DNA of 64,000 bases, from positions 9,674,001-9,738,000 of the forward strand of contig OZ076409.1 of assembly GCA_964187785.1 (NCBI GenBank), in the 5' to 3' direction. The position numbers and the translations under genes were made by a program. Under the pieces are notes generated by a model, which saw only the letters and a list, made by a program, of their open reading frames with translations, was not told the origin of the DNA and ran no database searches. Numbering within the stretch: position 1 is the stretch's first letter; the number at the start of each line of letters is the position of its first letter. Positions 1 to 40,531 of this stretch are shown one piece after another. The stretch comes from Amphiscolops sp. MND2022 (taxonomy: Eukaryota).

Positions 1-1112
1 GAGTGAGAAAATAATGTAATATTTGAAAAAGAAAATAAAACATAACAGTATAAAACTGAATGAACTTGGTACTGTCTCACTCAATCAGAATAGGCATCGA
101 ATACTTTCCTTTCAAGTGAAATATTTCAAGTCAAGTGGTTTATTAACTTGGACGGTGATGTTGCTCGGCGCCGCACTGGTACTATATGAAAACGATATGA
201 ACACTACAGTATAGCCCCAGTTTTGCACCGAGACGAAATTCGTCGTGTTACAATTGAAGAATTTCTGATTATTGATATAAATTAACGGATCTTGTTTGCT
301 AATACCCACCCCCACCCCACTCACAGGAAAATTTATCTGTCCCCAGAGTGTTTGCAGAAAATTGCCACCTTCACGGAAATTAATCAATTATTGAATCTAA
401 GCTTTCGAATGTTTCAAACAAAAACTATGAAGTCAGGTTCGTTCCACGCTTGTGTGAACAAGAAAAGGTGATCATTGATTGGAAAATGAAGGTTGTCACG
501 CTGCATGAACAACTTGACTTTCACTTCTAAGATCCCGGTCAACACGTAAAATGGCTCTATCCAAAATGAATTTAAGCAAACTCGTGACCATTACCAAAAC
601 TAAATGGGATACTGTGGCCCTTTATCAGTAAGCTGGGATAATTCCTCTGACAAAACAGTGAAAAAACGACTACGCTGAAAATCCAAAACTTTTAAGTGGG
701 AAAAGGGAAATAAGTTCGCGGGAGCCATTAGCAAACAATATCCAAATTAAACTTGATTTGACATATTTCGACTAGCACTTTCCTGAGGTTTATATAAAAT
801 GCAGTACATATAAGACTCATGATAGTGTCTAGATGATCTACGTTGAGCTAAAAATAGTTCCTTTTTCTTCAATATATCTTGTTATCTTGTTAAAATATCG
901 ATGTTATAAATCAATATAATACAGTACAGTGGCGTCTTTGGTGGCGTCTTTGAACCCTTAAACAACAAAAGACAACACAAAAATGTCTCCCCTTCTAGAT
1001 TATTTCAATCGTATTGCAAACGCAACAATAGTTTTTATATTCATTCCCATCAGGATGCTTCTTTATGCTGCTTTATTTTCTGCTGTATGAATAGGCCCCC
1101 ATTAGAAAAAAC

Positions 1113-1305
1113 TCGAAATCACATCGCGTTGCTATTTCACTTTAATTGACTGAAAATCACGCCGCATTACTATTTCAATGAAATTCACTGGGGAAAACCA
1201 CATCGCGTTGCTATTTCAATGAAGTTACTCGAAAATCACATCGCGTTGCTATTTCACCGAAGTTACTCGAAAATCACATCGCGTTGCTATTTCACCGAAG
1301 TTTGA
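1113..1305. repeat. Tandem array of ~38-bp unit (gaagttactcgaaaatcacatcgcgttgctatttcacc), ~5 copies
   Basis: Unit starts recur at 1221 and 1259 (period 38); the flanking units are degenerate. Confidence 0.9.
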
Positions 1306-1585
1306 AATTAGCTATAGGAAAAGCTGCTCTATAGATCGTTTTGAGAGTCAAAAATAGAAGCAGTAAATACTTGATTATTCGAGGCCAAGTTTCGAACCCA
1401 CAATGATGACAAAGCAATCAAATTATTAAATGTAAAGCGGCAAAAAGAACGAAATAAATAAATAATATTTGACAACAATTAATTGCAAACAACAGTAACA
1501 CAAATAGCAAGGCCTTTTCTCGAAGTTATTTTACTGAAATCAAGAAAAATATTTAGATCTTATTTCCGAAATAGGAAATATTTTA

Positions 1586-1655
1586 CCTGTCCGGGAATCG
1601 CACCCAAGACCTTATGGTTCGAAAGCTAGCGCACTAACTATTTGGCCATAGCGCC
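1586..1655 (-). repeat. tRNA-derived sequence (pseudo-tRNA or SINE head) between the two 38-bp arrays
   Basis: Reverse complement GGCGCTATGGCCAAATAGTTAG...GGGTGCGATTCCCGG has A-box-like and B-box-like motifs, but the acceptor stem does not pair. Confidence 0.5.
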
Positions 1656-1704
1656 TTGAAAATGAACAACTAAAATTTGCTTTTAATCTTATTGCTTGTC
1701 AACA

Positions 1705-2016
1705 AAGTTACTCGAAAATCACATCGCGTTGCTATTTCAATAAGTTACTCGAAAATCACATCGCGTTGCTATTTCACCGAAGGTAGTCGAAAATCACATC
1801 GCGTTGCTATTTCACCGAAGTTACTCGAAAATCACATCGCGTTGCTATTTCACCGAAGTTACTCGAAAATCACACCGCGTTGCTATTTCAGATGAAATTA
1901 CTCAAAATCACACCGCGTTGCTATTTCATAAGAAACTGCTCAAAATCACACTGCGTTGCTATTTCACAAGAAATTACACAAAATCACACCGCGTTGCTAT
2001 TTCAATGAAAGTTTGA
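1705..2016. repeat. Second tandem array of the same 37-38-bp unit, ~8 copies
   Basis: Same aaaatcacatcgcgttgctatttca core; copies degenerate toward the 3' end; ends in agtttgaa like the first array. Confidence 0.92.
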
Positions 2017-4860
2017 ATTGTATTTAGAGAATTGATGATTTTTAGGTACTTTCCTGAAACCGGAGTCTTTAAGTCAATGAACTGATTGTACGGTCTCTAT
2101 ATAGTGCGTCCGGTCTATTAGGAATGGTTTTTCAATTGTCCGGTCCATTAGGAAAGTACCGATTTTTATTTTAAATAGAAAAAATTTTCAATGAAACCAT
2201 ATCAGCATCCGCAGGAGACTTGGGGGCAAACGATGGATAGAAAATTTTCCAAAAATATTTTTAACTTTGTGAAAATCAAGAAAAAGTGCAAATTTGATGA
2301 AAATTGTATCTTTTCTGTTATTCCCCCCTCCCCCAAAGTAAGCTCGGAAGTTTAATTCCCCACCACTATCAGTGATGATTTTCAGTTGCAGTTAGAGCTA
2401 TAAAATACTGCAATTCCATTGGTTGTTAATATTTATTCAATGATAATTTCTCTTGGCCGCTTAACGTGGTGGGGGGATTACCAGTAAAGATCCTGAAATT
2501 TTGTCAAATTTTCGTATTTCTAACTTTTGTAATTTTTCTCGCAGAATTTTCAAACAAACAATTTTGTAAATTAGAAAAAAGTCTAAGAAACTTTTGTAGC
2601 TGACAATTTTAAAGATATTTGAGTTTTAAATTCGCTATTTTGAGCAATGGAGTTGCGATCAGGGATTTGCATTAAAAGAATACATTATTAATGGATATCC
2701 TACATTCAATAAATGCATTACTTTGACTGGCATTTTCATTAAATACTCTAACTTTCAAACAACATTAATTAATACATTTATTGTACAATAAATTGCCGAG
2801 TTTTCATTTTTTTCTCGCCGTTGAGCACTTTTTGCACACTTTCTCGGTTACAGAATGAACCATTCTTGGTCATTCTTGGCGCTTATTGAAATAGTACAGT
2901 GTTTCATTTCAAAAATGATTTTCAACATTTTTCAAAATGGGGACATTTGCTCAGAGCCAGCAGTTGATATAGTTGATATCTGAGACCTATCCATAGATAT
3001 CTACAGATATGTTACACATATCAAACGCCTCCGCCTGCCAAGTGTTTAACTTTGGTGATCTGACAAGCGGAAGCTGTTGCTCTGAGCCATAGTCCCCTAT
3101 TCACAGTAAAGTAATTGGAATATATATACACAGTACATGTATACATTCCGCGCCGCGCCTCATACCACACTGTTACGAATGAAGTGGCGCTTGAACGTGA
3201 TAATTGGCATTTGAAAATGATGAAGGGATCTTTTCTGTTAGCACAAAAATTATTAATTGGTAGGCTTGTATTGCATTGCAACACAAAATTACCAACCCCT
3301 GGTTCCCCCACCAATTTAATACCCCCAGTTAAGAGGTCAAGTGAAATTATCATTGAAATAGTAGTATTAATAATAATATTTGTAATAAAAAAATATTTAT
3401 ACAATAGTGTAAGAAATAAACTGAACCCTTATTTGTAAAAAAAGAATTGGACCAAAACAAAACTAGCTCTGATTTCTGCTATCATCCAAGTTATTTGAAA
3501 ATCAAATAAACAAACATTCTGAAATTTTGTTGCGCACTTGAAATGTAAGTTTGCAAATAATGAAGAAACTTCTTAATTTCATTTTTGATTGATTGTATTT
3601 ACTACTGAATTGGCATAGGGGACATCATTTTGGACAATTTTGTAACATTTGGCACCTAATTTGGAACTTTTATTTATTTGGCAGACACTTCTTCATTTAC
3701 TGAAGCCATTCATTTTTTTTACATTAAGGTAATTGGTATTTTATAGTTTTTGAAAGGGGTTCTCTTCTATTACATTTTATTTACTATCTTAATACGTGGG
3801 ACACAGCTATTTTTCGCAAAGATTGGGAATTATGCTTTCGGTTTTAGATTTTTAACCGATAAAATTATAATCACGAGAATCTGCTAACTAAGGCGATTAT
3901 GCCCATTATCTTAGACATTCAATTTATCCTTGCTATGTTTACATGCAGTCCAAATTATTTCTCACAAATAAGGGTTCAGTTCTTTTCTTACACTATTGTA
4001 ACTCTAACTGCACCTGAATGAAACTCATCGTTGATTCTGGGGAAAATTACAATTTTCGCTCTTACTGTGAGGGGGATTGGCTTTGGTAAACAGAAAAGAT
4101 CCTGATAAAGTGTTTGAAATAAAAAACATGAGTACAAAATCATTCAATACGTGGAAAACACTTACAATTGATAATCATATAATAAATCCAATAAAGAAGT
4201 ACATGAATATACATTTTATGTCCCTCCAAGGCCTAGTGAAAAGTGGGGTCTATGCAAGGTTGTAAAAATAAGTATTTTTAAATAAATATTTTTAAACAGA
4301 TATAATTATTTTTCGACTCAAACAGTTTAGTGAACAAACACGGTCAGCTGTTTATAACGGGGCTGTTTATAATGGCGTAAAAATGTTTCATAGCGGCTCT
4401 CAACTTTTATGTCCCACCAAGGCCTTTTAAAAAAGGGGTCTATGTCCCACTAAGCCGGCTTTGCATAAACAAGTGAAGAAGTTTCCTGGAAATGATATGT
4501 ATTTATAATGATCACCAGAACAAAAAGTCTTATTGGTATTCACTGATTACCGTTTATAGGTTTTTTGTACTGATGGTTGATTGAGTGACATGTTGTAAAA
4601 AAGCAGGTCCATGTCCCACCAAGTGCGTTTTGGTCCCCACGGTATTGTAACTATTGAAGCACGGCCTAACACCCAGTCATGCCAGAATTATCAAGATATT
4701 GATGAATTGACTACATTGAAGACTCATACCAATGAAAGAATCAAACGCATTTAAAGTGATATAAACAAATCACAAACCTAAAAAATTCTACGGGAAAACA
4801 AATTCAGATAAATATATAGATGAAAGTCTTTAATAACGTATCAACTAAAACTTGTTTCAG

Positions 4861-6833
4861 AACGTCAGAAGGGCTCATTCCAATGCAATTCTTGTGGGAA
4901 GATACTAACGAGACATTTCGATTTGCTCCGTCATCGACAAACAAATAAACAATGTAGAGGTCTGCAAGCTAGAACCACATCGTGTATTACAACTCCAGTA
5001 GATGTTCCTGTTGATGTAACCGGAGATGATGTACCTTCTCCCGAACCCGATGCTGCAACAACTTCTCTCGACAGGACACCCAGAGTTAGCCCTGAAAGGC
5101 AACAGTCTGTTCCTCCCCTAGGAGAACTTTTCGGTGAAACAGTTACTTTTGAAGAAGTAATTGCTTCTGGTGAAGTGTTTCCCCCCGAATTAATAACCCC
5201 TCCTAGAGAAAGAGAGACTGCTCGTGAAGTGACTGCTCGTGAAGAGACTGCTCGTGAAGAAGAGACTGCTACTGAAGAAGAGACTGCTCCTGAAGAAGAG
5301 ACTGCTCCTGAAGAAGAGACTGCTCCTGAAGAAGAGACTGCTCCCGGAGGAGAGATTGCTCTTGAAGAAGAGACTGCTCTGAAAGAAAAACAAAAGATAC
5401 CGGAAATTGAACTGCCGTATTTAGATTCCTTCAAATGGGGTTCACACAATCGTTCCAAAGTTGGGTCAAAAAAGTTTTTGGATTTAATTCGAGGGAAAGT
5501 ACCAGTCACCCAAAGTTTCACTGTCAACAACCGCCAGGATTTCAAGAACCGAATGACGAGAAGTACACCATGTCCTGTAGTTTTGAGACAAGCTAGGGGC
5601 AAACTTGCTGGTCTTGTTGTTCCTAGTGCCATACACGGTACCTTCCGTAAAATAACTGAGGGAATCCCTTGCAGCAGGAAAGTAAATGTGTGTTTTTCAG
5701 CACTCCAGGAAGTGGAGAACAATATGACCTTGGCAAGTTTTTTGGGGCATCATGAAGACCCATTCCGCGAGCGAGATCTTCATCCAATGAACATCATCGA
5801 CCTTGACATTGGTCCGCATCAGAGGACAATGAAACACACATTTTCGATTCCAAACTTGATAAAAGAATATTCTCTGGGTCATACTTACACCTCAAGAATG
5901 GATCCCTCAATCCGAGAAGAGTTTGACTTCACTGCTGGCATCAGCAATTACCTCTTGATGACTGAACAGGAAGCACAGACGGATTGGCATCAGGATTTCA
6001 CCGGAACTTCTGTTTTTTACTTTTTGTTGAAGGGAAGGAAAGAATTTTTCATCGTGGAGCCAACCCAGAAAGCCCAACAGCGTTTTGACGAATGGCGAGA
6101 GAGTGAATGGAAAAGGTTTGTTAAAAGGAAAACTCAGTTTTTACTTCAGTTTAGATTAATAATTGTGATCTTTTTCCTTATTGTTAAGTTGTAATTGGTT
6201 ATGTGATTGTTGTCAACAACTGTTAAAAGCTGAAGGTTATGACTGAAGATATTTCCAAAAAAGGGTTTGCTTTTCACGAGTTACAAGATACCTTCAAGGG
6301 GCTGAAACTTCTTAGAAAATTTCCGATGTTTAAAGTAGAAGTTAGTTCTCTCAACTTTGATTAATGTTGTTTTCAGCTCCACTTTCTTCGGTTTCCATCG
6401 AGATGTCACATGCTATCATATTGTGGTAGAAGAAGGAGACGCTATCTTCTTACCAAGCCAGTGGATTCACTTTGTTCACACCCCTGTTGATAGCATTGCT
6501 TATGCGTGTAACTTCATTATGGAAACCCACCTCCACCAGAGTGCCCTAGCCTTCAAGAAGGAGCTAGACGCAGGTTTGGCAAGACGTTTCTTGTTCCCAA
6601 ACTTCCCAGGTTTGATAGTGATGCAGCTCTACATGGAATGGGCTAATAAAAACCGCGTGAGTCCTATCACGAAAGCCGCCATGCGTGAGATGCTGCAGAT
6701 CATAAAAGCTGATGAGCGACCAACTGGTAAAGAATTTCCGCTGGAAAATCCCTGGGCAGAGTTCTTGTATCGCTATGCAGCAACTGTCAGCGACTTGCAT
6801 TGGGATGTAATTGAGGAGTGGCTACAACGTTGA
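4861..6833 (+). CDS. Zinc finger + JmjC histone demethylase (KDM2/KDM7-like); exons 4861-6115 and 6377-6833; first coding exon not located
   Basis: After acceptor tttcag(4860): FQCNSCGKILTRHFDLLRHRQTNKQC (C2H-type finger). JmjC motifs TDWHQDFTGTSVFYFLLKGRK and FLPSQWIHFVHTPVDSIAYACNF give an intact HxD...H triad. Phase-2 GT-AG intron 6116-6376 joins the exons in frame. Confidence 0.88.
5214..5380 (+). repeat. Coding minisatellite (15/18-bp units) encoding acidic EETA(P/R)E repeats
   Basis: gaagagactgctcctgaa repeated within the JmjC exon. Confidence 0.9.
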
Positions 6834-7023
6834 GGAGAAACAACAGAGTCCAGAAAGTGCAGCTTGAGGAAGTCTTCATTTTCAGTTTCAAAACTTGATT
6901 TTCGGCTCTTTATTGACTGATGAACATGCAAACAGTTTGCTTTCTTTATTTAGTGTCATGTGTTTTTTACTTACTGAGCACTTTTGCTTACTTTTTTTAC
7001 TTACGTAGTAAATACTATACCAG

Positions 7024-7422
7024 CAGAGGTGTGATCGCTAACAATTTTATCGCAAATCGCTAACATCGGTAATGGCTTGATTTCATCTCTATCGCTACAA
7101 CAAAATGGGTGGTTCGCTAACGCTATCACTATTTTAAAAACCTGATTTTCAGAAAGATCATATAAAAATTTCAGAATGTACTTTAAAATTAATAAATTTT
7201 GAAGTTTTGGGCAAATTGTACTTCGCCTACAAAGCCGGGCTCATCGAATAACTGTTCGAAAGGAAAAAGCCAAAATGATGTGTCAAGTTATTCGCAATAA
7301 TTTTTTGCATTAGTTAATTTTGAATTTCTAGTTGAAAACATGTTCGCTAACGCTTTAATTTGTCGCTAACTATCGCTATCGCTAATTCATGCTGAATTGT
7401 CGCTATCGCTGTCATACCTCTG
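7024..7422. mobile_element. hAT-like MITE between the JmjC and SET genes
   Basis: TIRs cagaggtgtga / tcatacctctg; 8-bp flanks tataccag (7016-7023) and tatacaag (7423-7430); many internal tcgcta motifs. Confidence 0.8.
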
Positions 7423-7789
7423 TATACAAGGTATAGAAAAAAATCGAAAGTTTCTTATGATGAATGTACAAATGTTGTGGATTTTGAGAATTCAAGAGAA
7501 CAATTGAGGCAAAAAATTCAGCCTCAACTCTGAATTTGCTCAATGATTCTTCCGACTTGTAGGCTACGTGTAACTTTGTTTTTGCTTAAATCAATTGTTA
7601 CTACCTTACAGAATCTGGAAGTATCAGTTGTACTAATGGTCTTTCGTAATTAAAGCATTTCTTCGGAGTGGTTTTTTAATTCAATGTTTTGTAAGCTTAC
7701 AAATGTACATCGAGTTCACTAGTGAGATGGGGTTAGAAACGATTTCTTGTCTGTCAGGACTTCTTTAAACGTAACTTTCTAGGACTTGA

Positions 7790-10700
7790 ATGTCAACAAG
7801 AAGTGCTGCCCGGAAAGCAGAGCCCTGGAGCTCTTTTCTTTACTCAGACCCAGAAGGCTTCCAAGTGAAAACTGTACAGTTTGCAAACGGGGCCACGGGG
7901 CGAGGGCTTTTCGCTAACAGAAGTTTTGACGACAAAAAATTTTTGCTCACTTACTGGGGACCGAGAAGTACAACAAAAACGACCAACTTCGACTATGTGA
8001 TGGAACTGCAAGAAGGGAAACAAGCGGTATTCATTGACACTTCTGACGAAAAGAATTCAGGAATGGCTCGATTCATCAACGACAAGGACAGAGCAGTGGC
8101 TGCTAACTGTCGGATGAAGAAGGTCACTGATGACCAAGGTAGAAACCATTGCATCTTCCTGGCAACTCGCCCGATTCAGTCTGGTTAGTTTGTTTTTTTT
8201 TACAAGACAGAAGGCCATTTAAGGCACTGAGTGTGAGTCCCACCAAGTTCCAGTGAAAAAGGTATCAGTGTCCCAGCAAGTGTTGATCAAAGCGTAACGA
8301 TACATTGAACGGTTTTGCAGTAATACACACTTGGAAGTACCAGGCTATTATTTTACACTGCCTTAACGGTTTCGTAGCAAATTCCAGGCATTTTGCACTA
8401 TGTTTCGTATGAGGTACCACCAAGGCTGAGTAAAAAACGGAATCTATGTCCCACCAATTCTGGTATCGTAAACGGCCTTATTTTTGCACGGCCTTAACGG
8501 GACATCTGAAAATTGAAAAACACTGCCTATTGCCGAAGTTTCCACCGAAGTCATTTTTGTGAGACAATTAAAAGAAACAATTCTCAATTGATCATTCTTG
8601 TTTATCCGTTCATATTCACAGGTGAGGAGTTGCGCTATGATTATGGTTTTCCTCATGCAGAATGGAGACGAAATCCTCAAGCTCCGGGAACCAAAAGTAA
8701 TATAGATAATATAGAAGCCGCTGATTCCAAAAACAAAATATCTCGTAATGTGGACGAGCCCTTCATAACAGTGACAAGGAAGAAGAAACTGGAAACTCTC
8801 TTCAAACAATCTGGACCTGAAAAAGAAAAACCCGGTGATTCCGAAAAAAGAATTTCATCAACAACGCAAAGAAAAGGAAAAGAATCTGAAGTTCCAGTGA
8901 AAGAGGTTTCCAATTTGTATCCCAATCTTAGTGCGAAGAACCTCACAATTCCACTTCAGCCTGTGCCATTGCAATCATGCAACGAATCTAACAACATTGA
9001 GATACAAAACGCAGCGGACACAGTAGAAAAACCTCCTAACACATTACACAACAATGCGGGGGACACGGAACAGAGGATCTCAACAAAGTCATCGCAAAAC
9101 CAATCTAGCAAAGTTGAGAAAAGCAAAACTACTGACACAGAAGAGAAGACTCTTAACCCGTTACGCAAAGAAGGGGACACGGAACTGAGGATCTCAACAA
9201 AATCATCGCAAAACCAATCTAGCAAAGTTGAGAAAAACAAAACTACTGACACAGAAGAGAAGGCTCTTAACCCGTTACGCAAAGAAGGGGACACGGAACC
9301 GAGGATCTCAACAAAATCATCGCAAAACCAATCTAGCAAAGTTGAGAAAAACAAAACTACTGACACAGAAGAGAGACGGGGGGCCACGGAACCGAGGATC
9401 TCAACAAAATCATCGCAAAACCAGTCTAGCAAAGTTGAGAAAAACAAAACTACTGACACAGAAGAGAAAGCTCCTAACCCGTTACGCAAAGACGGGGACA
9501 CGGAACCGAGGATCTCAACAAAATCATCGCAAAACCAATCTAGCAAAGTTGAGAAAAACAAAACTACTGACACAGAAGAGAAAGCTCCTAACCCGTTACG
9601 CAAAGACGGGGACACGGAACCGAGGATCTCAACAAAATCATCGCAAAACCAATCTAGCAAAGTTGAGAAAAACAAACCTACTGACACAGAAGAGAAGGCT
9701 CCTAACCCGTTACGCAAAGACGGGGACACGGAACCGAGGATCTCAACAAAATCATCGCAAAACCAATCTAGCAAAGTTGAGAAAAACAAAACTACTGACA
9801 CAGAAGAGAAGGCTCCTAACCCGTTACGCAAAGACGGGGACACGGAACCGAGGATCTCAACAAAATCATCGCAAAACCAATCTAGCAAAGTTGAGAAAAA
9901 CAAAACTACTGACACAGAAGAGAAAGCTCCTAACCCGTTACGCAAAGACGGGGACACGGAACCGAGGATCTCAACAAAATCATCGCAAAACCAATCTAGC
10001 AAAGTTGAGAAAAACAAAACTACTGACACAGAAGAGAAGGCTCCTAACCCGTTACGCAAAGACGGGGACACGGAACCGAGGATCTCAACAAAATCATCGC
10101 AAAACAAATCTAGCAAAAATGAGAAAAACAAAACTACTGACACAGAAGAGAAGGCTCCTAACCCGTTACGCAAAGACGGGGACACGGAACCGAGGATCTC
10201 AACAAAATCATCGCAAAACCAATCTAGCAATGTTGAGAAAAACAAAACTACTGACACAGAAGCGAAAGCTTCTAAACAACCACGGAAACCGAAGAATGTA
10301 ACTAGAAGCATTGAAGCATCGTATGCCAAAATGACTGAACTAGAAGGAAGAAAACCAAAAACACCTTTTGGAGCCAAAAACGAATGTATAATACCTCAGA
10401 AGGTAAGCACAATTTCATTAATTACCCGTTTAAGATTTGAAATTACTGACTTTTTGAAAAATCTTTTTTTGGTTGCGTTTGCACCTCAAAGTGAAAACAA
10501 TTTGATGGCTTTCATGCACCTCATTCATTGAAGTGCCACAGGATTTTAAAATCATGCTGGTAAAAGTTTTTTTTTTAATTGTTAAGTTTAATCATGTGAA
10601 AAGAATTTTGCATGTAAAAACAAACGCATTGTGGACGAATGTAGATTATAATGCTTCATCATCTGGAAATAACCTCAATACAATTTTAGTCCAAAAGGAA

Positions 10701-13700
10701 GCCACTGTGGTTTTAGAGCGAAATATTTTTTTCGGAACTGTGTTGTTCCCGAAAGAATAAGATTCTCCCTTTTTAAGCAGTTGGAGCTCTCTGAGGGAAC
10801 ATCAAGGGCTTTGAGAATTCTCAACAAAGGACGCGAATACTTAACGCCGAAGCCTGAGGAAGATTTGGATTCTGACTCAGCCGAAGAACACAGCAACATA
10901 CCTGAACAATCAAGCGAGAGTTCCAGCGACGATTCGTCGTCGGAAACATCTGAATCTTCAGGTGAAAGTTACATTGTTGATGAGGATGAAGGTAGCGAGG
11001 AACTGTCTTCAGAAGAAGAAACAGAAACTGCATCAACAGCTGAAAGAGCGCCAAGTACGCCCAATAAAGTTTCATCAAATCAGACAGTGGTATTGGGAGA
11101 AGGCATTTCTCAGATCAGTGAGAGTAGTTATCAGACCGCACTAGCTTCAACGTCGTCTACAAGACCAGATGATGTTGCAAACACTATGGACGGCTATGAT
11201 AACATTGAAGACGACATGCAACAATATGTCAACGCTAATTGTTCCGGAAAATGGAGATTCAACTCAAAGTATCTCAGGAAGATCCAGATTGTTGTCTCTG
11301 AAGGTAAATACAAAAAGAAGAAATGTTGTCCTTACTGTCCTTTCGAAGATATCAAAGATGCGACAATGGTCGCCAAATTACATCGCCATTTGCAATCATT
11401 CCATCAAAGAGAGCTCCGCGTCAGTAACCTTAGGCGAATAAATCTAGAAATAGAAGAATTAGAAGGAAGTAAGGAAATCGCGACAACTGAACGCGATTTG
11501 AGGAAACTTCATAAAGAGAAAGAGCAAACATACCGCTTGATCACATATGAAGGCCAGTACAAATATAACATCGCGGTTTTCAAAAAATGCATAGATACGA
11601 ACAGATTCACTGACAAACTGATCGTAGTCAGGGACCCAACGGAAACGGAGAATCCAACAGCTGATAACTATGCTCCTTGTCCTGATTGTCTTGGCTTCTT
11701 CATGAGAAAAACCATGTACCGGCACAAACTAGACTGCCCGGCAGTTACCAAGTCTAGCCATAAGGAAGGAAAAAACAAAAACATCAAAGCTGCCATCTTT
11801 GCGTTGATGCTTGAAATCAAAGCAAATCATAACACACCATTCCAGGAATTCCTTTATAACAATTTAAGAAACGATCCAGTTGCAGAACTAATACGAAATG
11901 ACCCCCTTATAAAGTATGTTGGGGAATATTATTTCAACAAGCGAAAATCAGACGAAGGCTACAATCAGATCAGGGACAGAATGCGAGTAATGGCCAAACT
12001 TGTTCTCCAACTGGAATGCTCATATTTGATTGAACTAATCAGACCAGACATGTGGTCAAAAGTGAAAGAAGCGGTGTCAAAAAATTTTGCAAAATCCTAC
12101 CAAGTGAAAATGGGATCGATTCTGAAAACAGCTGCTGCATTTCTGCAAAATCAAGCTTTCGTGTGGGAGAAGAAGGAGATATCTCAACAAGCTAAACAGT
12201 TTCAGAAAATTATTGACACTGAATGGGCTCAAATATCCGCACCTGCTAAATACGAGTAAGTTGGAACCATTCAAAAACTATTGAGGCAAATATTTACAAA
12301 AAGTATCGAATTTTGGCAAAAATTTGAAAAAAAATTGTAGTTTCGGAGTGTGAGAAACGTAGTGGAACTTTGTCTAAAATAGTTACTTAGCCAATTTCAG
12401 TCGTTTTGCTCTAGTCCTTATAGCGGGCCCACCTTTTATGTCTCACTTAGTGTGCGTCCCACCAAGGCCAAGTAAAAGAGCGGGTTTATGTCCCACTAAG
12501 TCTGGTTTGCTCAACAATTCAAGTAAAAGAAGCCACAATGTAAAAAGTTGCTCCACACGTTTTATTTAGGCCCCCTAAAACTAGCTGATAAACGTTTTCA
12601 GCCTTTTCTTTCCCAAATCTAATCACCTTGTGTTTTTCTAGGTTGGTCAAGAAGCAAAATGAGAGCATACATCTGGTTATTCCCACTACGGACATCATTA
12701 AATTCCGGCAAAGCATTGGAAAAAAAGTGCGAGAACTCCTCGAACTGACTAAGTATAACTATGCCGAACTCAAACTAACTGTGATAGCTGATCTTGTTAG
12801 TTTCAACAAGAAGCGTGATCGTGAAGTTTCTGGAATCAAAAGAAGAGATATGATACTACAACGGAGTCTTGCCAGTGAACGAGCAAAGACAGCGGATAAC
12901 GAGCTCGTGAAGCTTACAAAACTAGAGGAAAAGTTCGCAGAAGTCTACACACTCCTCCGACTTCCTGGTAAGGGAGGAAAAGTTGTCCCTGTGCTGGTGC
13001 CACCGGACACACTCAAACTTATTGATATCATGATAAATGATGACAACTTGAAAAATGAAACGTACTTCTTCCAAACAGAAGGTGGAAAACTGCATTACCG
13101 GAGCGCTGAGGCCCTGAACAAGTTCGCTAAAGACTTTGAGCTGGAGAACAAACCTTTGTTCAGGTCAACGAAGCTTCGAAAGTATATGGCGACAGCAGCA
13201 CAGTTTTAGAACTTACCACAGCACCAGAGGACTTGGGTTGCTGATTTTCTGGGTCATGACTTAAGGGTTCACGACAAGTATTACAGGATGCACACTGATG
13301 CCTTAAATCTAGCAAAAGTTACAAAATTGTTGTATATGGTCGACAGCGGTAAACTCGAGGAAGCCTATTCGAAAGACCTTGACACAATTCAACCAACACT
13401 GGAGGATGGCGAGTTGGACGACTCGGTTAGTTTTGTAGTTTTTGAAAATATCAGTCCGGATTAAATAAAAAAATAGGTTTTGATATTTGTACTATTGCAA
13501 TAAAGAAAATCCCCTACGGGTCCGGGAATAATCTATCGAAAAAAACAAAAACCCACTGAAACATTACATGCTGGAATTCAATTTCAGTTATAATTATCAT
13601 AAGTATAATCATAACATGCAATCCAACGCTAGTTTGTGAAGATGAAGATATTTGATTGGGAATTGGTTAAAAAGAAACGCAATGTGATCTAAAGTCGATT

Positions 13701-14717
13701 GCTTCAGAACTTGGTCGTCCAAAGTCAATGAACTCAATATTATTTGCTCCATCTGGCAAATCTGGAAAACATTGATTTTCAAGAGATCAGTAACTTCGTG
13801 TCCAGTTTTAACATAGCACGCGGAAAAGAAATTCAAACCTATTCAGGAACTGTCATCAACTGGAAAGAATAGATTTTTTCTTACCTATTTTTTTATAAAG
13901 CCAACCATTGATTCTTCTGATTACTTCAGATAACAGTACAATCAATTTCATTTAATTCGTAACCGGATAATTCGGATCTTCGTTTATTTTCGTATAAAGT
14001 TTCTACTGAAGCAATACAAACCTCTTCTTCACATTGCGTTTCTTTTGGATCATACTCCCAACGAAACAATACACATCTTAATTGTGCATAATACACATGC
14101 ATCTAGGCAATGCAGGCCTATTCTCTATCACGTCGCGTTTCTTTTCAAAACTCTCTTTTCAAAACATCAAAGAGTATTGTAACTTTTAAACTATAAAACT
14201 TTTGAATTTAAAATTATAAAATAGTAACTTAGCCAAAACAAAGTCGTTTAGTTAGAAACAGGTTGACTTCATTTGAGTAATTGGAATTTGTTTTTTCAAG
14301 GATAACGAAACCGAAGTCCAAGACGATACCAATCATGCGAGATCCGGTGACGGCGCAGAAAATTCACTGAGAAGGTCCAATGCCTCAACCTCGGGAAGCA
14401 AAAACAGTCTCTCACTTGGAACAGGCGATGGTGACACGGGTGACATTTCGGATGAATTTAATACAACAATCAAAAGGAATCGAAAGAAAACTACTGGTGG
14501 TAAGAAAAAGCCTAAGCCTGGTGGTACTACACGACGAACATGGCCGCTGGATCAAGAAAAAAGGCTGAGGAAACAATTCCGAGAAGAGATGAAGCAAGGA
14601 CGACTGCCTGGCCGAGCAGTTTGTTTGGAGGCAATGAAAAAATATCCCCATGCTTCAAAGTGGCAGGATATCAAAGATAAAATACGGAACATGACCATCA
14701 GTGACGCAAGAAAATGA
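7790..14717 (+). pseudogene. SET domain - repeat - zinc motifs - tyrosine recombinase - Myb-like fusion gene; exons 7790-8183, 8622-10402, 10781-12255, 12642-13425, 14301-14717; single in-frame TAG at 13207-13209
   Basis: All four GT-AG introns are phase-consistent. SET motifs GRGLFA, MARFIND and spliced IQSG|EELRYDYG. YR motifs FNKKRDREV, GKGGKVVPVL, STKLRK, FLGHDLRVHDKYYR. C-terminal RRTWP...LPGRAVC...WQDIKDKIRN. Confidence 0.88.
9059..10268 (+). repeat. Coding tandem repeat, 114 bp / 38 aa, 11 units
   Basis: GDTEPRISTKSSQNQSSKVEKNKTTDTEEKAPNPLRKD repeated; unit 3 has an in-frame 21-bp deletion. Confidence 0.95.
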
Positions 14718-15218
14718 TCAGTTATCAGTGACAGGATAACAATAATTGAAGGATAAAGTCATATGAACTTTCACTCGAGTATGAAACTTACCTTTTCAAA
14801 CAAATCCAGGTTTTACGATACTTGACTTGAGTTGTAACAACGTTGTTTGGGCTGAATAAAAGATTTGCAATGACTTGGATTTTTAATTTACCAGTCAACT
14901 TGTTACTAGCTAACTGTGTACTGTCAAGAGTAAAGTATATGAAAATTATTCAGAAGGTGTACAAAAAATATGGGGTTACCGAGAAAATTTTATCTGTCAC
15001 TTTGACTAAAACCAATGATTATCAGTACCTTGAGTCCATTTGAAAATTGCCCAAAGACTGGTCACCAGGGATTGAAAAATATTAAATGCGTGAACAATTA
15101 ATAATTAAAGTCAATATAATGACTGCAATAAATTTCCAGCCAATTTCGTTGTGTCTTTGCTCTCTCCAATGACAGAGTTTCATTCGTAAAGAATAACATT
15201 CGGAAAACAGAATTATGT

Positions 15219-16165
15219 TTTGAGGTCCCACCAATGCATGTCAATAAGTATTCTTGATAGCTGAAAATCGCTGAAAAGATTTTGTGTTAAGGTCCCACCA
15301 ATGCATGTCAATAAGTATTCTTGATAGCTGAAAATCGCTGAAAAGATTTTGTGTTAAGGTCCCACCAATGCATGTCAATAAGTATTCTTGATAGCTGAAA
15401 ATCGCTGAAAAGATTTTGTGTTAAGGTCCCACCAATGCATGTCAAAAAGTATTCTTGATAGCTGAAAATCGCCAAAAAGATTTTGTGTTTAAGTCCCACC
15501 AATGCATGTCAATAAGTTTTCTTGATAGCTGAAAATCGCTGAAAATATTTTGTGTTAAGGTCCCACCAATGCATGTCAATAAGTATTCTTGATAGCTGAA
15601 AATCGCTGAAAAGATTTTGTGTTAAGGTCCCACCAATGCATGTCAATAAGTATTCTTGATAGCTGAAAATCGGTGAAAAGATTTTGTGTTAAGGTCCCAC
15701 CAATGCATGTCAAAAAGTATTCTTGATAGCTGAAAATCGCCAAAAAGATTTTGTGTTTAAGTCCCACCAATGCATGTCAATAAGTTTTCTTGATAGCTGA
15801 AAATCGCTGAAAAGATTTTGTGTTAAGGTCCCACCAATGCATGTCAATAAGTATTCTTGATAGCTGAAAATCGCTGAAAAGATTTTGTGTTAAGGTCCCA
15901 CCAATGCATGTCAATAAGTATTCTTGATAGCTGAAAATCGCTGAAAAGATTTTGTGTTAAGGTCCCACCAATGCATGTCAATAAGTATTCTTGATAGCTG
16001 AAAATCGCTGAAAATATTTTGTGTTAAGGTCCCACCAATGCATGTCAATAAGTATTCTTGATAGCTGAAAATCGCCAAAAAGATTTTGTGTTAAGGTCCT
16101 ACCAATGCATGTCAATAAGTATTATTAATAGCCAAGTTAAAGATTTTGTGTATGTCCCACCAAGG
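15219..16165. repeat. Tandem array of 67-bp unit, ~14 copies, each containing GTCCCACCAA
   Basis: ttaaggtcccaccaatgcatgtcaataagtattcttgatagctgaaaatcgctgaaaagattttgtg recurs with period 67. Confidence 0.95.
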
Positions 16166-16231
16166 GAAAAGTGTGTACGTCCCACCTTATGCCCGTTTCG
16201 TGTACGGACCCACCAAGTGCTACTTCGTACA

Positions 16232-16350
16232 CATGTGTGTGTGTGTATTTATATATATATGTATAATTTTTTTATAGATAATTATTGTATGTATACATAT
16301 ATATATATATATATAATTATTTTATATATATATATATTATATTATTAATA
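16232..16350. repeat. (TG)n/(TA)n microsatellite tract
   Basis: Directly visible dinucleotide runs. Confidence 0.9.
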
Positions 16351-38400: not shown

Positions 38401-40531
38401 TCTGCAAGATCTTTACAGAAGTGTGCAGATTTTCTGTGAAGATTTTTGCAGAAACCTGTTTTTCTGCAGCTTTTAAGGTACAAATATACTGCATTTTTGG
38501 ACTTCTTCAACTAATTCATCGAGTATTTTAGCTGACCTAAGGTCAGTCAGTAGAAACTCTCCATCACTCAAAATTCATGAGAAGGAAATATTGTCCCCAT
38601 CACGGTAATTTTGGTGTCTGGGGAATATTTGGTATGTGTCATACACTAATTTATGTATTTCACTCGAACTTTCCAGAAGCGGTTTTTCAACTTTGAGAGG
38701 CTTCTTTGCCTTATTGACTTCGTTTTGACGGATGAAACTTGACATGTGGCAACCTTCTGGGTTGGTAGATGTATTCATAAAGTGTTGTTGTTGTAATATT
38801 TCGGGAACATGGTTTGTTGGAGTAATTTCAATAATTTCTGGTAACTCGGAATACGTTATAGTAATTTATTCGTCATTGTTTGGCTCTGTAAAGATCTGTA
38901 ATTTCTACAGATCTTTACAGATTGCTACAGAAAAATGTTTTATTGTTTTGACATAAATGAGACTTCTCTCCAGTTTAAAACATTTTTATTGTTCGTTTGA
39001 CATCGCTGTGGGGTTTTTATTGTGTTTCTGAGTACGTCAGTTTTTTTTCGAATCTGCACATATCTGCAAAAATTCTGCAGATCTGCACAGATTCGCAAAG
39101 ATCGAAAACCTGGGTATTTCCTCACCGTGATTTTAGTGGATTTTCAACTAACGGTTTGAAAGGTAATCAAGTACAGACAGTATTATACTAAACATGAGAC
39201 TTTAAAAATAGCGCAAATAAAAGCAAACGTATTTTCTTATCACTAGTTTCTTTGTGTAATTGATTACAATGTGGACTTTCTAATAAAATAAGCTTTTAAC
39301 AACAAAACATTCAAACTTGTGCAACTTTTATATTAAATTTCACCAACTTTTTCACTAAAAACTCATTGAGATAGTAAAGTTTTGTTTTCCATGGATTGTA
39401 TATATAGTTGCCTTTTGCCAGGGCTGGTCCAGCCAGACATAGCCAGGTGTAAAAGTGCTACCGGTCGACCAAGCCTGGCCAGAGATGAAATACCATCGAG
39501 TCTCAGTACGGGTAACTTTTTCCGTGTTTTTAGAATTCGGAAAAAATTTTAATCTACTTATCCGATCGTGTTGTTTTTTTCTCCCGACCTTTCAATGAAA
39601 ACTTCAAATTTCTCGAAAACTGTCCATACGATTTTTATAAAATTTTGCACAGTCATTCTACGCTCAAAGGGGCCCTTGTGTGCGCAATGGCATCAAAATC
39701 GTATTACTGGGATGTGAGAAATATAGCCAAATTTAGCCCAAAAATGGCCAAAAAACATCCATTTTTCGACTTTTTTCGATTTTCTCAAAAACTGTCCATA
39801 AGATTCGAACGAAATTTTCTACAGTCGTTCTACACCATATTATGGTCCTTTCTGTGCAATTTCATCAAATTCTTATGACTAGGATTCGAGCTAGTCAGAT
39901 GGAAAAAGATCTAAGCCGACTCCTTTTACCGCATATGCGGGTCTGGTTACAACTTGAGAATAAATTATCTCCTTTCTAAATATCTTTTCAAACATTTTTA
40001 CATCCTTCTTGCTTCCAGGACTGTTTGGATCCCGAAGCGAGGAAAAACTCAATCGACCATGGTCCCTTCGAGGGTCATTACACGGGTGAGTTGTATGAAC
40101 CAATGCAACAACGAATAAGGGACTGCAAGTTTTATTTCGCCTTCGACAATTCAAACTGTTCCGATTTTGTCACTGAAAAATTTTCAAACGCATTGGAAGC
40201 TGGCGCCATACCTATTGTCAACGGTTGGAGGGACTCTTACGAACAAAAAGTACCTGGATCTTTTATTCACGTCTCTGATTTTGAAAATCTCACAAATTTA
40301 ACGCAAAGGTTAGCTTATCTCTTGGAAAACGAAGATGCATTTATGGATTACCATAAATGGAGATTGAAGTTCAGGATTGAAAGACTACATTTGCAGCCTC
40401 AGTGTCAGCTGTGTGAAAAACTCAACCAATCAAAATCCAACCAGCAGCGATTGCCTACGATCCTCGACTCCGCAAAGTTTTATGAATCCTTGCAGAATTG
40501 TTCTGAAGGGACCTTGCCAAAAGTAACTTGA
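20435..40531 (+). CDS. Alpha-1,3/4-fucosyltransferase (GT10), 450 aa; exons 20435-20576, 27960-28065, 32002-32177, 33919-34334, 40019-40531
   Basis: Type II membrane N-terminus (basic tail plus LILLLCCLWCITATL); GT10 motifs AVVF, RNPEQIWIIVTMET, FNWSMTY, WILSNC, IWGK, KFYFAFDNSNCSDFVTEKF, SFIHVSDF, YHKWR. Intron phases are consistent and total 1353 bp with no stop. Exons 1-2 are less certain than exons 3-5. Confidence 0.85.
21289..21806 (+). mobile_element. Helentron/HINE-like non-autonomous element, nested in an older related copy
   Basis: Subterminal inverted repeat agtcggcgc (21309) / gcgccgact (21793), the latter within hairpin tagtcgg...ccgacta; A-rich ends; internal gggaccctttgg repeats. 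Confidence 0.65.
23145..23560 (+). mobile_element. Further copy of the same Helentron-like family
   Basis: aacaagacgggaacgtctaaagtcggcgc head; internal blocks shared with the 21289 copy. Confidence 0.55.
24293..24471. mobile_element. Small TA-flanked MITE; related inverted copy ends at 27531
   Basis: ta|cccag...ctgg|ta ends, catgg-rich interior; 27352-27531 is similar in reverse orientation. Confidence 0.55.
26665..27350 (+). mobile_element. Probable solo LTR containing a gag-like N-terminal ORF (26951-27307)
   Basis: Ends tgtgacga...tcgtaaca (TG..CA inverted repeat); internal ORF MPTTRNQKRR...; no TSD found. Confidence 0.45.
28891..29433. mobile_element. Mutator/Foldback-like MITE with repetitive TIRs
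   Basis: ggtcatttcgcctaatgccatttcgcctaa / ttaggcgaaatggcattaggcgaaatgacc; duplicated flank atttcagg at 28883-28890 and 29434-29441. Confidence 0.8.
30387..30841. mobile_element. MITE-like repeat with tattttccgccc / gggcggaaaata ends; longer relative starts at ~50468
   Basis: Inverted termini; ~250 bp shared with 50468-50730. Confidence 0.55.
32970..33317. mobile_element. Fold-back element with ~150-bp near-perfect inverted arms
   Basis: atgagatgtccgattgct...gactattttagt is mirrored by actaaaatagtc...agcaatcggacatctcat. Confidence 0.9.
34420..37899 (-). mobile_element. Decayed, 3'-truncated Ty3/gypsy (Mag-like) retrotransposon in fucosyltransferase intron 4; 5' LTR ~37705-37899
   Basis: Gag CCHC (CRNCKTRGHYEKMC), protease IIDSSSP, RT SPAVITVKKDKSVKFALDSRKLN, RNase H TDASKKGLG; many frameshifts; LTR TG..CA followed by PBS tggcacag; no integrase core seen. 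Confidence 0.88.
38316..39114. mobile_element. TA-flanked MITE (Tc1/mariner-like) with ~40-bp TIRs
   Basis: ta|cccagtttttcgatctttgcgaatctgtgcagatctgcag ... ctgcagatctgcacagattcgcaaagatcgaaaacctggg|ta. Confidence 0.88.

Follow-up and report, generated by a model that had tools for sequence, protein, structure and literature searches.

A family-specific motif in the ends and interior of a giant SET-recombinase transposon, and its likely role as a docking site

Introduction

VANDALs are Mutator-like plant elements that carry a DDE transposase, VANA, and a separate gene, VANC, and among described systems they come closest to the one reported here. Our subject is a 64,000-nucleotide stretch of the genome of Amphiscolops sp. 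MND2022 (G000:C1:9,674,001-9,738,000, hereafter the window), and in it a 10-base motif of a giant tyrosine-recombinase (YR) transposon that we call family 1. A sequence-only reading of the window had likened the motif to the arrays bound by VANC proteins, and the layout bears this out. The motif is short and family-specific, is clustered in introns, intergenic and terminal non-coding DNA, lies partly in tandem repeats of variable copy number and differs between sister families, as the passages on VANC targets in PMC5735166 describe. However, the mobiliser here has the YR fold, the motif sits in the recombination ends and has multiplied largely by the copying of entire end cassettes, and predicted histone-modifying domains are encoded by the element itself. 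In how its motif is laid out and kept specific to one family, the element works like VANDAL/VANC, but it is neither a VANDAL nor a Starship nor a CryptonA.

Arm-type sites are a further point of comparison. Those of lambda integrase and of Tn916/Tn1549 are direct repeats at a fixed distance from the crossover core, as are the repeats described here. The arm-binding domain of lambda integrase is N-terminal, whereas the candidate binder in our element is a C-terminal three-helix tail and its sites recur throughout the element. In En/Spm there are subterminal TnpA repeats, and the subterminal binder is also an activator. TnpA is also treated in 10.64898/2026.08.24.746577, which reports plant transposases as regulators of their own copies.

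Among YR elements, the nearest groups are Cryptons and Starships. The SET-YR proteins of fish are presumably members of CryptonV. Some CryptonV families insert in microsatellites, according to a passage in PMC8869645, and our YR DNA transposon does so by entering TG tracts. The CryptonV passages of PMC8869645, PMC5753468 and PMC4455052 give no length, gene content or end structure; compared with these descriptions only, our element differs in its 35-61 kb, its JmjC, RING and C2H2 cargo and its internal end cassettes. With Cryptons in general it shares a YR with catalytic residues, the lack of a reverse transcriptase and short direct homology at the junctions. Passages on Cryptons A, F, I and S describe elements that lack terminal inverted repeats and have 4-6-bp direct repeats (PMC3212892, PMC13465315), and one review treats Cryptons as single-gene elements (PMC9406493). 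In contrast, our element has a 9-bp inverted core with motif arms, and many genes. Passages of a review that came up for Cryptons and JmjC draw no tie between Cryptons and SET or JmjC cargo, and the DUF3504 recombinase feature of CryptonA was found in 0 of 49 aligned YR proteins (E <= 0.01). Starships, as outlined in PMC10104507, are fungal elements of tens of kb that are moved by a YR, carry cargo, have target-homology repeats at their junctions and begin with a DUF3435 captain. Ours is similarly large with variable cargo (35-61 kb in eight complete copies; RING, C2H2 and JmjC), but the 49 aligned proteins have no DUF3435 match and the YR gene is the last one. Its host is likely an animal, to judge from fish-named relatives. 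We found no description of the element or the motif in the literature covered, outside which lie Repbase Reports, subscription papers and supplements that may describe CryptonV structure.

Results

The motif is a repeated unit of transposon ends

The terminal cassettes of a YR transposon of 35-61 kb have the motif as their repeated unit, and copies of the left-end cassette that lack the full crossover end lie in the element's interior. The parts of the element in the window that bear on this are as follows.

1..16240, + strand: right-hand third of the giant YR transposon, family 1, from similarity to other copies
1116..2004 (1116-1302 and 1705-2004), + strand: two 38-bp arrays with a second family-specific word, CAYCGCGTTGCTA
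4220..4622, + strand: motif cluster upstream of the JmjC gene: left-end cassette in truncated form at 4220, cassette with a doublet at 4411/4444, lone motif at 4613
8237..8300, + strand: diverged doublet in SET-YR intron 1 (motifs 8237/8270)
8414..8478, + strand: copy of the left-end cassette in SET-YR intron 1, terminal core altered (motifs 8414/8448)
12425..12520, + strand: four-site copy of the left-end cassette in SET-YR intron 3, terminal core altered (motifs 12456/12490)
15212..16132, + strand: subterminal array of 67-bp units, each with one motif; 14 units in this copy, from a tandem-repeat scan
16154..16240, + strand: right end, with three motif variants, 7 nt, the core TTCGTACAC and a TG tract at the junction, from 30 loci

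Read outward, both ends consist of the motif, 7 nt and the core TTCGTACAC beside the TG target; the 9-bp core is thus inverted between the ends, with the motif 7 nt inside it at each. Four motif sites lie within ~90 bp at the left end, the outer two 34 apart. In the 1.07 Gb of genome searched, the pattern of motif, 7 nt and core occurs 441 times and its control 0 times. Motif doublets number 1,248 against 1 for the control, and all 100 doublets listed have cassette-type spacers. The right terminus, TTCGTACACA followed by TG repeats (window 16224-16240), and the left terminus, TGCGTGTACGAA, are each identical in 30 of 30 loci, an invariance partly due to the choice of loci as best matches to the end queries. 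The flanks of the 30 right ends differ, apart from three that enter one sister-family end, and one locus stops at a contig end; on the left, two loci have a common flank and one has none. Beyond the searched key, right flanks go on as TG tracts (G in 28, T in 28 and G in 29 of 29 loci), and for an insertion into a tandem repeat of the host, the adjacent unoccupied unit carries (TG)3 at the corresponding place (L098/L061). Junctions sit in short TG tracts, and the direct homology at the junction is the TG tract itself. The 67-bp array has 4-15 units among the 30 right ends, and 10 units in 22 of them.

The stretch marked in the sequence-only reading (4220..16217) would amount to a 12-kb element. 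This is too short, as the common sequence continues for at least 32 kb upstream of window base 1, up to an assembly gap at G000:C1:9641971. Copies at C1:0.27-0.32 Mb and C3:39.65-39.70 Mb match the window copy at 99.4-99.5% identity in blocks as long as 22 kb, and young family-1 copies are in general near-identical (99%+). The YR region has 40 scored DNA matches in the genome at 98-100% identity; for the catalytic YR exon, 150 of 578 candidates were scored as matches, and more than 150 copies of the element are present in the genome. The eight complete copies, with both ends, differ in length by internal gains and losses.

Within the window, the motif with at most one mismatch has 28 matches where 2.73 +/- 1.53 are expected (100 shuffles), and 19 of these are exact. 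All but two lie within 4220-16216 on the + strand, and the others, at 40225 (-) and 60759 (+), are at chance level. Across the genome the exact 10-mer occurs 8,766 times and its reversed control 1,426 times. One element of 50,407 bases holds 37 exact motifs against 1 in 249,965 bases of flanks, and 84 of the first 100 exact genome matches listed fall inside three elements and two fragments. The remaining 16 are unassigned, where the reversed control leads one to expect about 23. An unrelated miniature inverted-repeat element or satellite as the source of the motif is rejected by these genome matches and by the doublet and flank counts. That the motif belongs to the element carrying JmjC and SET-YR has been borne out, as it is confined to the element, family-specific and under selection.

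Several details of that first description change. All the motif positions it listed are present on the + strand, though 16179 and an inverted copy (3793-3802) have two mismatches, and each of the 14 array units does carry the motif (15225-16096). The motif had been said to mark every non-coding part of the element on one strand. Inside the window the strand is indeed constant, but upstream of it clusters occur on both strands of this copy, and five non-coding segments of the window have no match: the JmjC intron, the 957-bp JmjC-SET spacer, SET-YR introns 2 and 4, and 14717-15211. Only two of the five predicted introns therefore contain the motif. The 33-34-bp doublets are real, and what had been overlooked is that they are copies of the whole left-end cassette, their spacing being the distance between its two outer motifs. 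Their supposed link to the 67-bp period as its half does not hold, as a unit matches itself at 23/67 positions at shifts of 33 and 34 and at 24/67 at other shifts. Nor does motif orientation follow gene orientation in general: a cassette is antisense where it lies in the predicted intron of a RING gene further upstream, and sense where it lies in SET-YR introns.

Each of the eight complete copies has 9-14 internal cassettes, 2-5 kb apart and in both orientations, some of them in predicted introns of the SET-YR, RING and C2H2 genes. Among 416 internal motifs from 12 copies, array units included, 7 precede the core and 0 precede the full terminus. A subfamily at G000:C3:35.66-35.72 Mb (L340-L345) and C3:33.39-33.44 Mb (L346-L350) has three internal cassettes with the core and without the last terminal bases, as well as a head-to-head fold-back pair of cassettes; the copy at 35.66-35.72 Mb also has an inverted internal right end together with its 67-bp array. 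Inspection did not support cassettes as routine breakpoints of rearrangement: one deletion ends in a cassette and another crosses paralogous blocks.

Internal motif bases are conserved

The internal motif bases are under purifying selection. We aligned the introns of 31-49 copies and counted a column as variable if a variant was common to at least three of them. Variable columns number 6 of 72 in motifs, 33 of 153 in cassette spacers and 186 of 1,009 in other intron sequence, while exon and splice columns have 26 of 393. Base-matched intron columns would give 14.7 for the motifs (p about 0.005), and the deficit is also seen at thresholds of at least two copies (12 against 20.7) and at least five (4 against 11.7). 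Rare variants, which are mostly post-insertion changes, are about equally frequent in motifs (0.0115 per base) and elsewhere (0.014-0.015). In the upstream interior of 10 diverged copies, 1 of 341 motif columns is variable against 11.6 expected, and six shifted controls gave 9-16 against 9.5-10.9. Motif columns, unlike spacer columns 11 or 22 bases off, are depleted of inherited changes, and these spacer controls argue against conversion of whole cassettes as the cause of the conservation.

A sister family uses a different word

A second family of giant JmjC/SET-YR elements, 37-43 kb long, lives in the same genome, with 73 matches to its left end and about 32 of the first 100 of 267 recombinase-pattern matches. 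Copies of it are L200-L203 (G000:C6:73878050-73915740), L206-L209, L211-L215 and L216-L219. A single odd match among the same first 100 was fetched as a possible third family and proved to be a decayed family-1 copy. Between families 1 and 2, identity is about 50% in JmjC, 73% in SET, 58-69% in YR and 78% over 58 residues of the tail; both C2H2 genes are about 52-58% identical in the finger region. The ends of family 2 read GT(C/T)CGACCAA, 7 bases, TTCTCA, with a 34-bp doublet on the left, and internal copies of this cassette are again present. The two words all but exclude each other: four family-1 copies hold 34-46 family-1 words apiece, and three family-2 copies hold one apiece, while of the family-2 word there are 36-40 copies in family 2 and 1-6 in family 1. 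Family-2 ends often abut family-1 ends directly through their TG tails, which suggests that an insertion supplies the target of the one after it and that composite elements could result.

The second word follows the same rule, with 20-28 copies of CAYCGCGTTGCTA in each family-1 element and 37-50 of CACCGGGCGTTGC in each family-2 element, nearly exclusively. Genome-wide, a 19-mer taken from it has 1,704 matches and the control 0, and the word is conserved (1 variable column of 196, 6.5 expected). It is a candidate site for the C2H2 proteins.

More distant relatives come from metagenomes (80 loci, about 30% identity). None was found in viral contigs. The 54 loci of at least 4 kb fall into 35 families at 90% identity, and in 6 of the 35 arrays of TGTCC with a family-specific extension lie on both sides of the gene. 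Loci L263, L275, L278, L290 and L291 have intronless YR frames with dense flanking arrays of GTGTCCCCAG, GTGTCCTCAG, GTGTCCACTG or GTGTCCTCG.

Predicted proteins

The two genes of the window that concern us here are predicted as follows.

4824..6833, + strand: C2H2-JmjC gene, KDM7/PHF8-like, with a predicted intron at 6116-6376 and an uncertain 5' end, from profile matches
7790..14717, + strand: SET-linker-zinc-YR-helix-turn-helix gene, SET Pfam match at E 3.2e-7
7790-8183, 8622-10402, 10781-12255, 12642-13425 and 14301-14717, + strand: predicted exons of the SET-YR gene, whose phases close

The JmjC domain matches KDM7A (E 5.8e-12) and keeps its HxD...H metal ligands in both families. In the SET-YR gene, the last before the right end, the phases close with an intron-2 acceptor at 10781, read from sequence at a position that matches family 2. 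The window copy has an in-frame TAG at 13207-13209, whereas of the 27 other copies that are identical over the query, 26 have the longer 290-residue frame. Pfam scans of window and upstream frames found only C2H2, JmjC, SET and RING, with no DDE or reverse transcriptase family among the 8 window and 118 upstream frames scanned. The catalytic YR columns (R, K, R, H, Y) are nearly invariant in the 49 aligned sequences, three of which match Phage_integrase weakly. A profile search of PDB sequences gave nothing significant. Two named fish relatives also have SET (PF00856) and YR in one protein.

A structural model of a relative (724 residues, predicted local distance difference test score, pLDDT, of 78; not the window protein) contains a zinc region, a Xer/Cre-like part for core binding and catalysis, a disordered linker and a three-helix tail. 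Residues 158-530 of the model resemble XerA (E 4e-4) and XerH (Z 11.8). Its tail has middling homeodomain matches (Z 5.6-6.5), and a tail assignment to a Rap1-Myb cluster at 0.76 serves as a lead only. The model of the window's own YR exon, built from seven sequences, was of low confidence (pLDDT 43) and was not used.

Discussion

What binds the motif? The sequence-only reading had named zinc-finger and Myb-like parts of the element's proteins as candidates, and had overlooked that the motif lies in both recombination ends; the YR protein is therefore the prime candidate. We consider it likely that the motif is bound by the element's own SET-recombinase and that the internal cassettes are kept as docking sites that are not cut. 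The SET-YR protein would bind the GTCCCACCAA cassettes of family 1 both at the ends and inside. At the ends, the core-binding and catalytic domains would hold the 9-bp core and carry out strand exchange within the TG tract. Another DNA-binding part would recognise the motif, in the manner of arm-type sites of lambda integrase. The best candidate for this part is the three-helix tail on its long flexible linker, with the zinc region as an alternative. The internal cassettes would have arisen by duplication, fold-back and nesting of ends, would then have lost their crossover, and may have been kept since they load the same protein along the element.

It is less certain that the docked protein counters silencing by way of SET and JmjC and does not just take part in movement. 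Because the presumed binder has a predicted SET domain and its neighbour is a KDM7-like demethylase, docking could set permissive chromatin specific to the element, as VANC does for VANDAL; this is the weakest step of the proposal. Its broadest form, to which we give something less than even credence, is that Starship-sized YR transposons of animals carry a self-contained, sequence-specific anti-silencing system made of a SET-recombinase, disarmed copies of its ends and a KDM7-like demethylase. In that case the family-private word would have begun as a recombination arm site, the demethylase would perhaps be docked by the second private word, and chromatin would be rewritten along 50 kb of the element while host and sister family are spared. 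Such a system would be VANC-like but of independent origin, and the transposon itself would encode its histone enzymes.

The nearest alternative is that the recombinase does bind the motif but that internal sites serve movement only, by compacting or looping 50 kb for end pairing, as synapsis enhancers, or as a mark against self-insertion, with no role in chromatin. This would cover the terminal place of the motif, its family specificity, the 2-5 kb spacing, both orientations and the selection without any SET activity, which suits a SET motif that is non-canonical and has no PDB match. We nevertheless think it rather unlikely, since it leaves unexplained the fusion of SET to the binder and a KDM7-like JmjC with intact metal ligands kept in both families, and since mobile copies differ freely in how many cassettes they have and in what order. 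There is a still smaller chance that the analogy of the sequence-only reading holds in its strict form: a separate protein, either C2H2-JmjC or the product of the C2H2 cargo gene upstream, would recognise the motif in the way of VANC, and the ends would contain it only since they, too, have to remain open. A single C2H2 finger reads about 3 bp, too short for a word of 9-10 bp, and the fixed 7-nt distance between motif and core, at both ends and in both families, points to the recombinase; for the C2H2 proteins, moreover, the second word is available. What speaks for a separate binder is that both C2H2 genes are kept between families and that the motif layout resembles that of VANC targets in the relevant passages of PMC5735166.

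The internal cassettes might instead be functionless relics of nested insertions or tandem composites, with only the terminal motifs of importance. Elements do abut each other at their TG tails, an inverted internal right end and a fold-back pair have been found, whole cassettes are copied with their spacers, and selection would favour losing the crossover in relics as well. Relics would not, however, be depleted of inherited changes in motif columns and not in spacer columns 11 or 22 bases away, nor would older ends be expected to track the current word of each family so closely, and we regard this reading as very improbable. Least credible of all is a host transcription factor or insulator whose site the element uses as a promoter or boundary signal. 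The clusters upstream of JmjC and in introns would fit such a factor, and selection would look alike; but two families in one genome use different words, and outside elements the motif is at chance level, both in the flanks (1 in 250 kb) and among the first 100 genome matches.

Several observations weigh against docking by the SET-recombinase and its proposed role in chromatin. The p-values for selection are approximate, as columns were treated as independent though copies share ancestry, and a single reference copy served to pick the motif columns. The motif is missing from several introns and from the SET promoter region. The family-2 pattern was settled on after inspection of the data, and the matching introns of family 2 lack the family-2 word at the corresponding places: intron 3 has no cassette and intron 1 holds family-1-like words, so that the idea of cassettes at matching intron positions in both families was given up. 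The change of word has been traced to no residue, with tails as similar as those of the two families. The true site of anti-silencing could be the second word. The TGTCC arrays of metagenome relatives all belong to one clade of 11 families, and the hosts are possibly few. The exon joins of SET-YR are predictions. Finally, the window SET domain, although it passes Pfam, has NDK at the position of the usual NHS, and a SET search of the PDB matched no solved structure; the domain may for these reasons be inactive.

How transposons escape silencing in animals is largely open, and the worked-out sequence-specific systems in the literature we found are from plants. This element suits a direct test, having two coexisting families with different words, young copies, mostly open recombinase frames and a candidate binder and candidate enzymes that it encodes itself. 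It also shows a route from a recombination end to a regulatory site. Chromatin aside, a YR that has recently carried 50 kb of cargo into short TG tracts of a eukaryotic genome of 1 Gb merits attention as an integrase for large cargo. The same kind of element may be marked by unnamed SET-YR proteins of fish genomes.

Other features of the element and its surroundings

The interior has few long frames; it carries RING exons, and also a C2H2 exon and further exons that are conserved in the sister family. Small RING-finger cargo genes, possibly for ubiquitin ligases, lie at L028:1069-1305 (-), L030:799-1065 (-) and L028:3429-4047 (-). One RING type is present 0-3 times per copy, and a second is split by an intron that bears a cassette. 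Short cargo frames with no Pfam match, at L029:3171-3689 (-), L029:7700-8059 (-), L030:5126-5560 (-) and L030:9364-9588 (+), are conserved at the protein level in other copies or in family 2. The last of these is a C2H2-like exon, and the intron after it holds an almost perfect copy of the left-end cassette (window -88/-54).

In-frame tandem peptide repeats, of 114 bp in the SET-YR linker (9059-10266) and 18 bp in JmjC (5213-5383), vary in length between copies, and VANC proteins likewise have variable tandem peptide repeats according to a passage in PMC5735166. The host flank (16247-64000) starts with a TA-rich tract (16246-16342), and its remainder was scanned for motifs and tandem repeats. 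Elsewhere in the genome, four exact motifs with a 1,921-bp period at G000:C1:5127643-5133414 probably belong to an unrelated tandem repeat.

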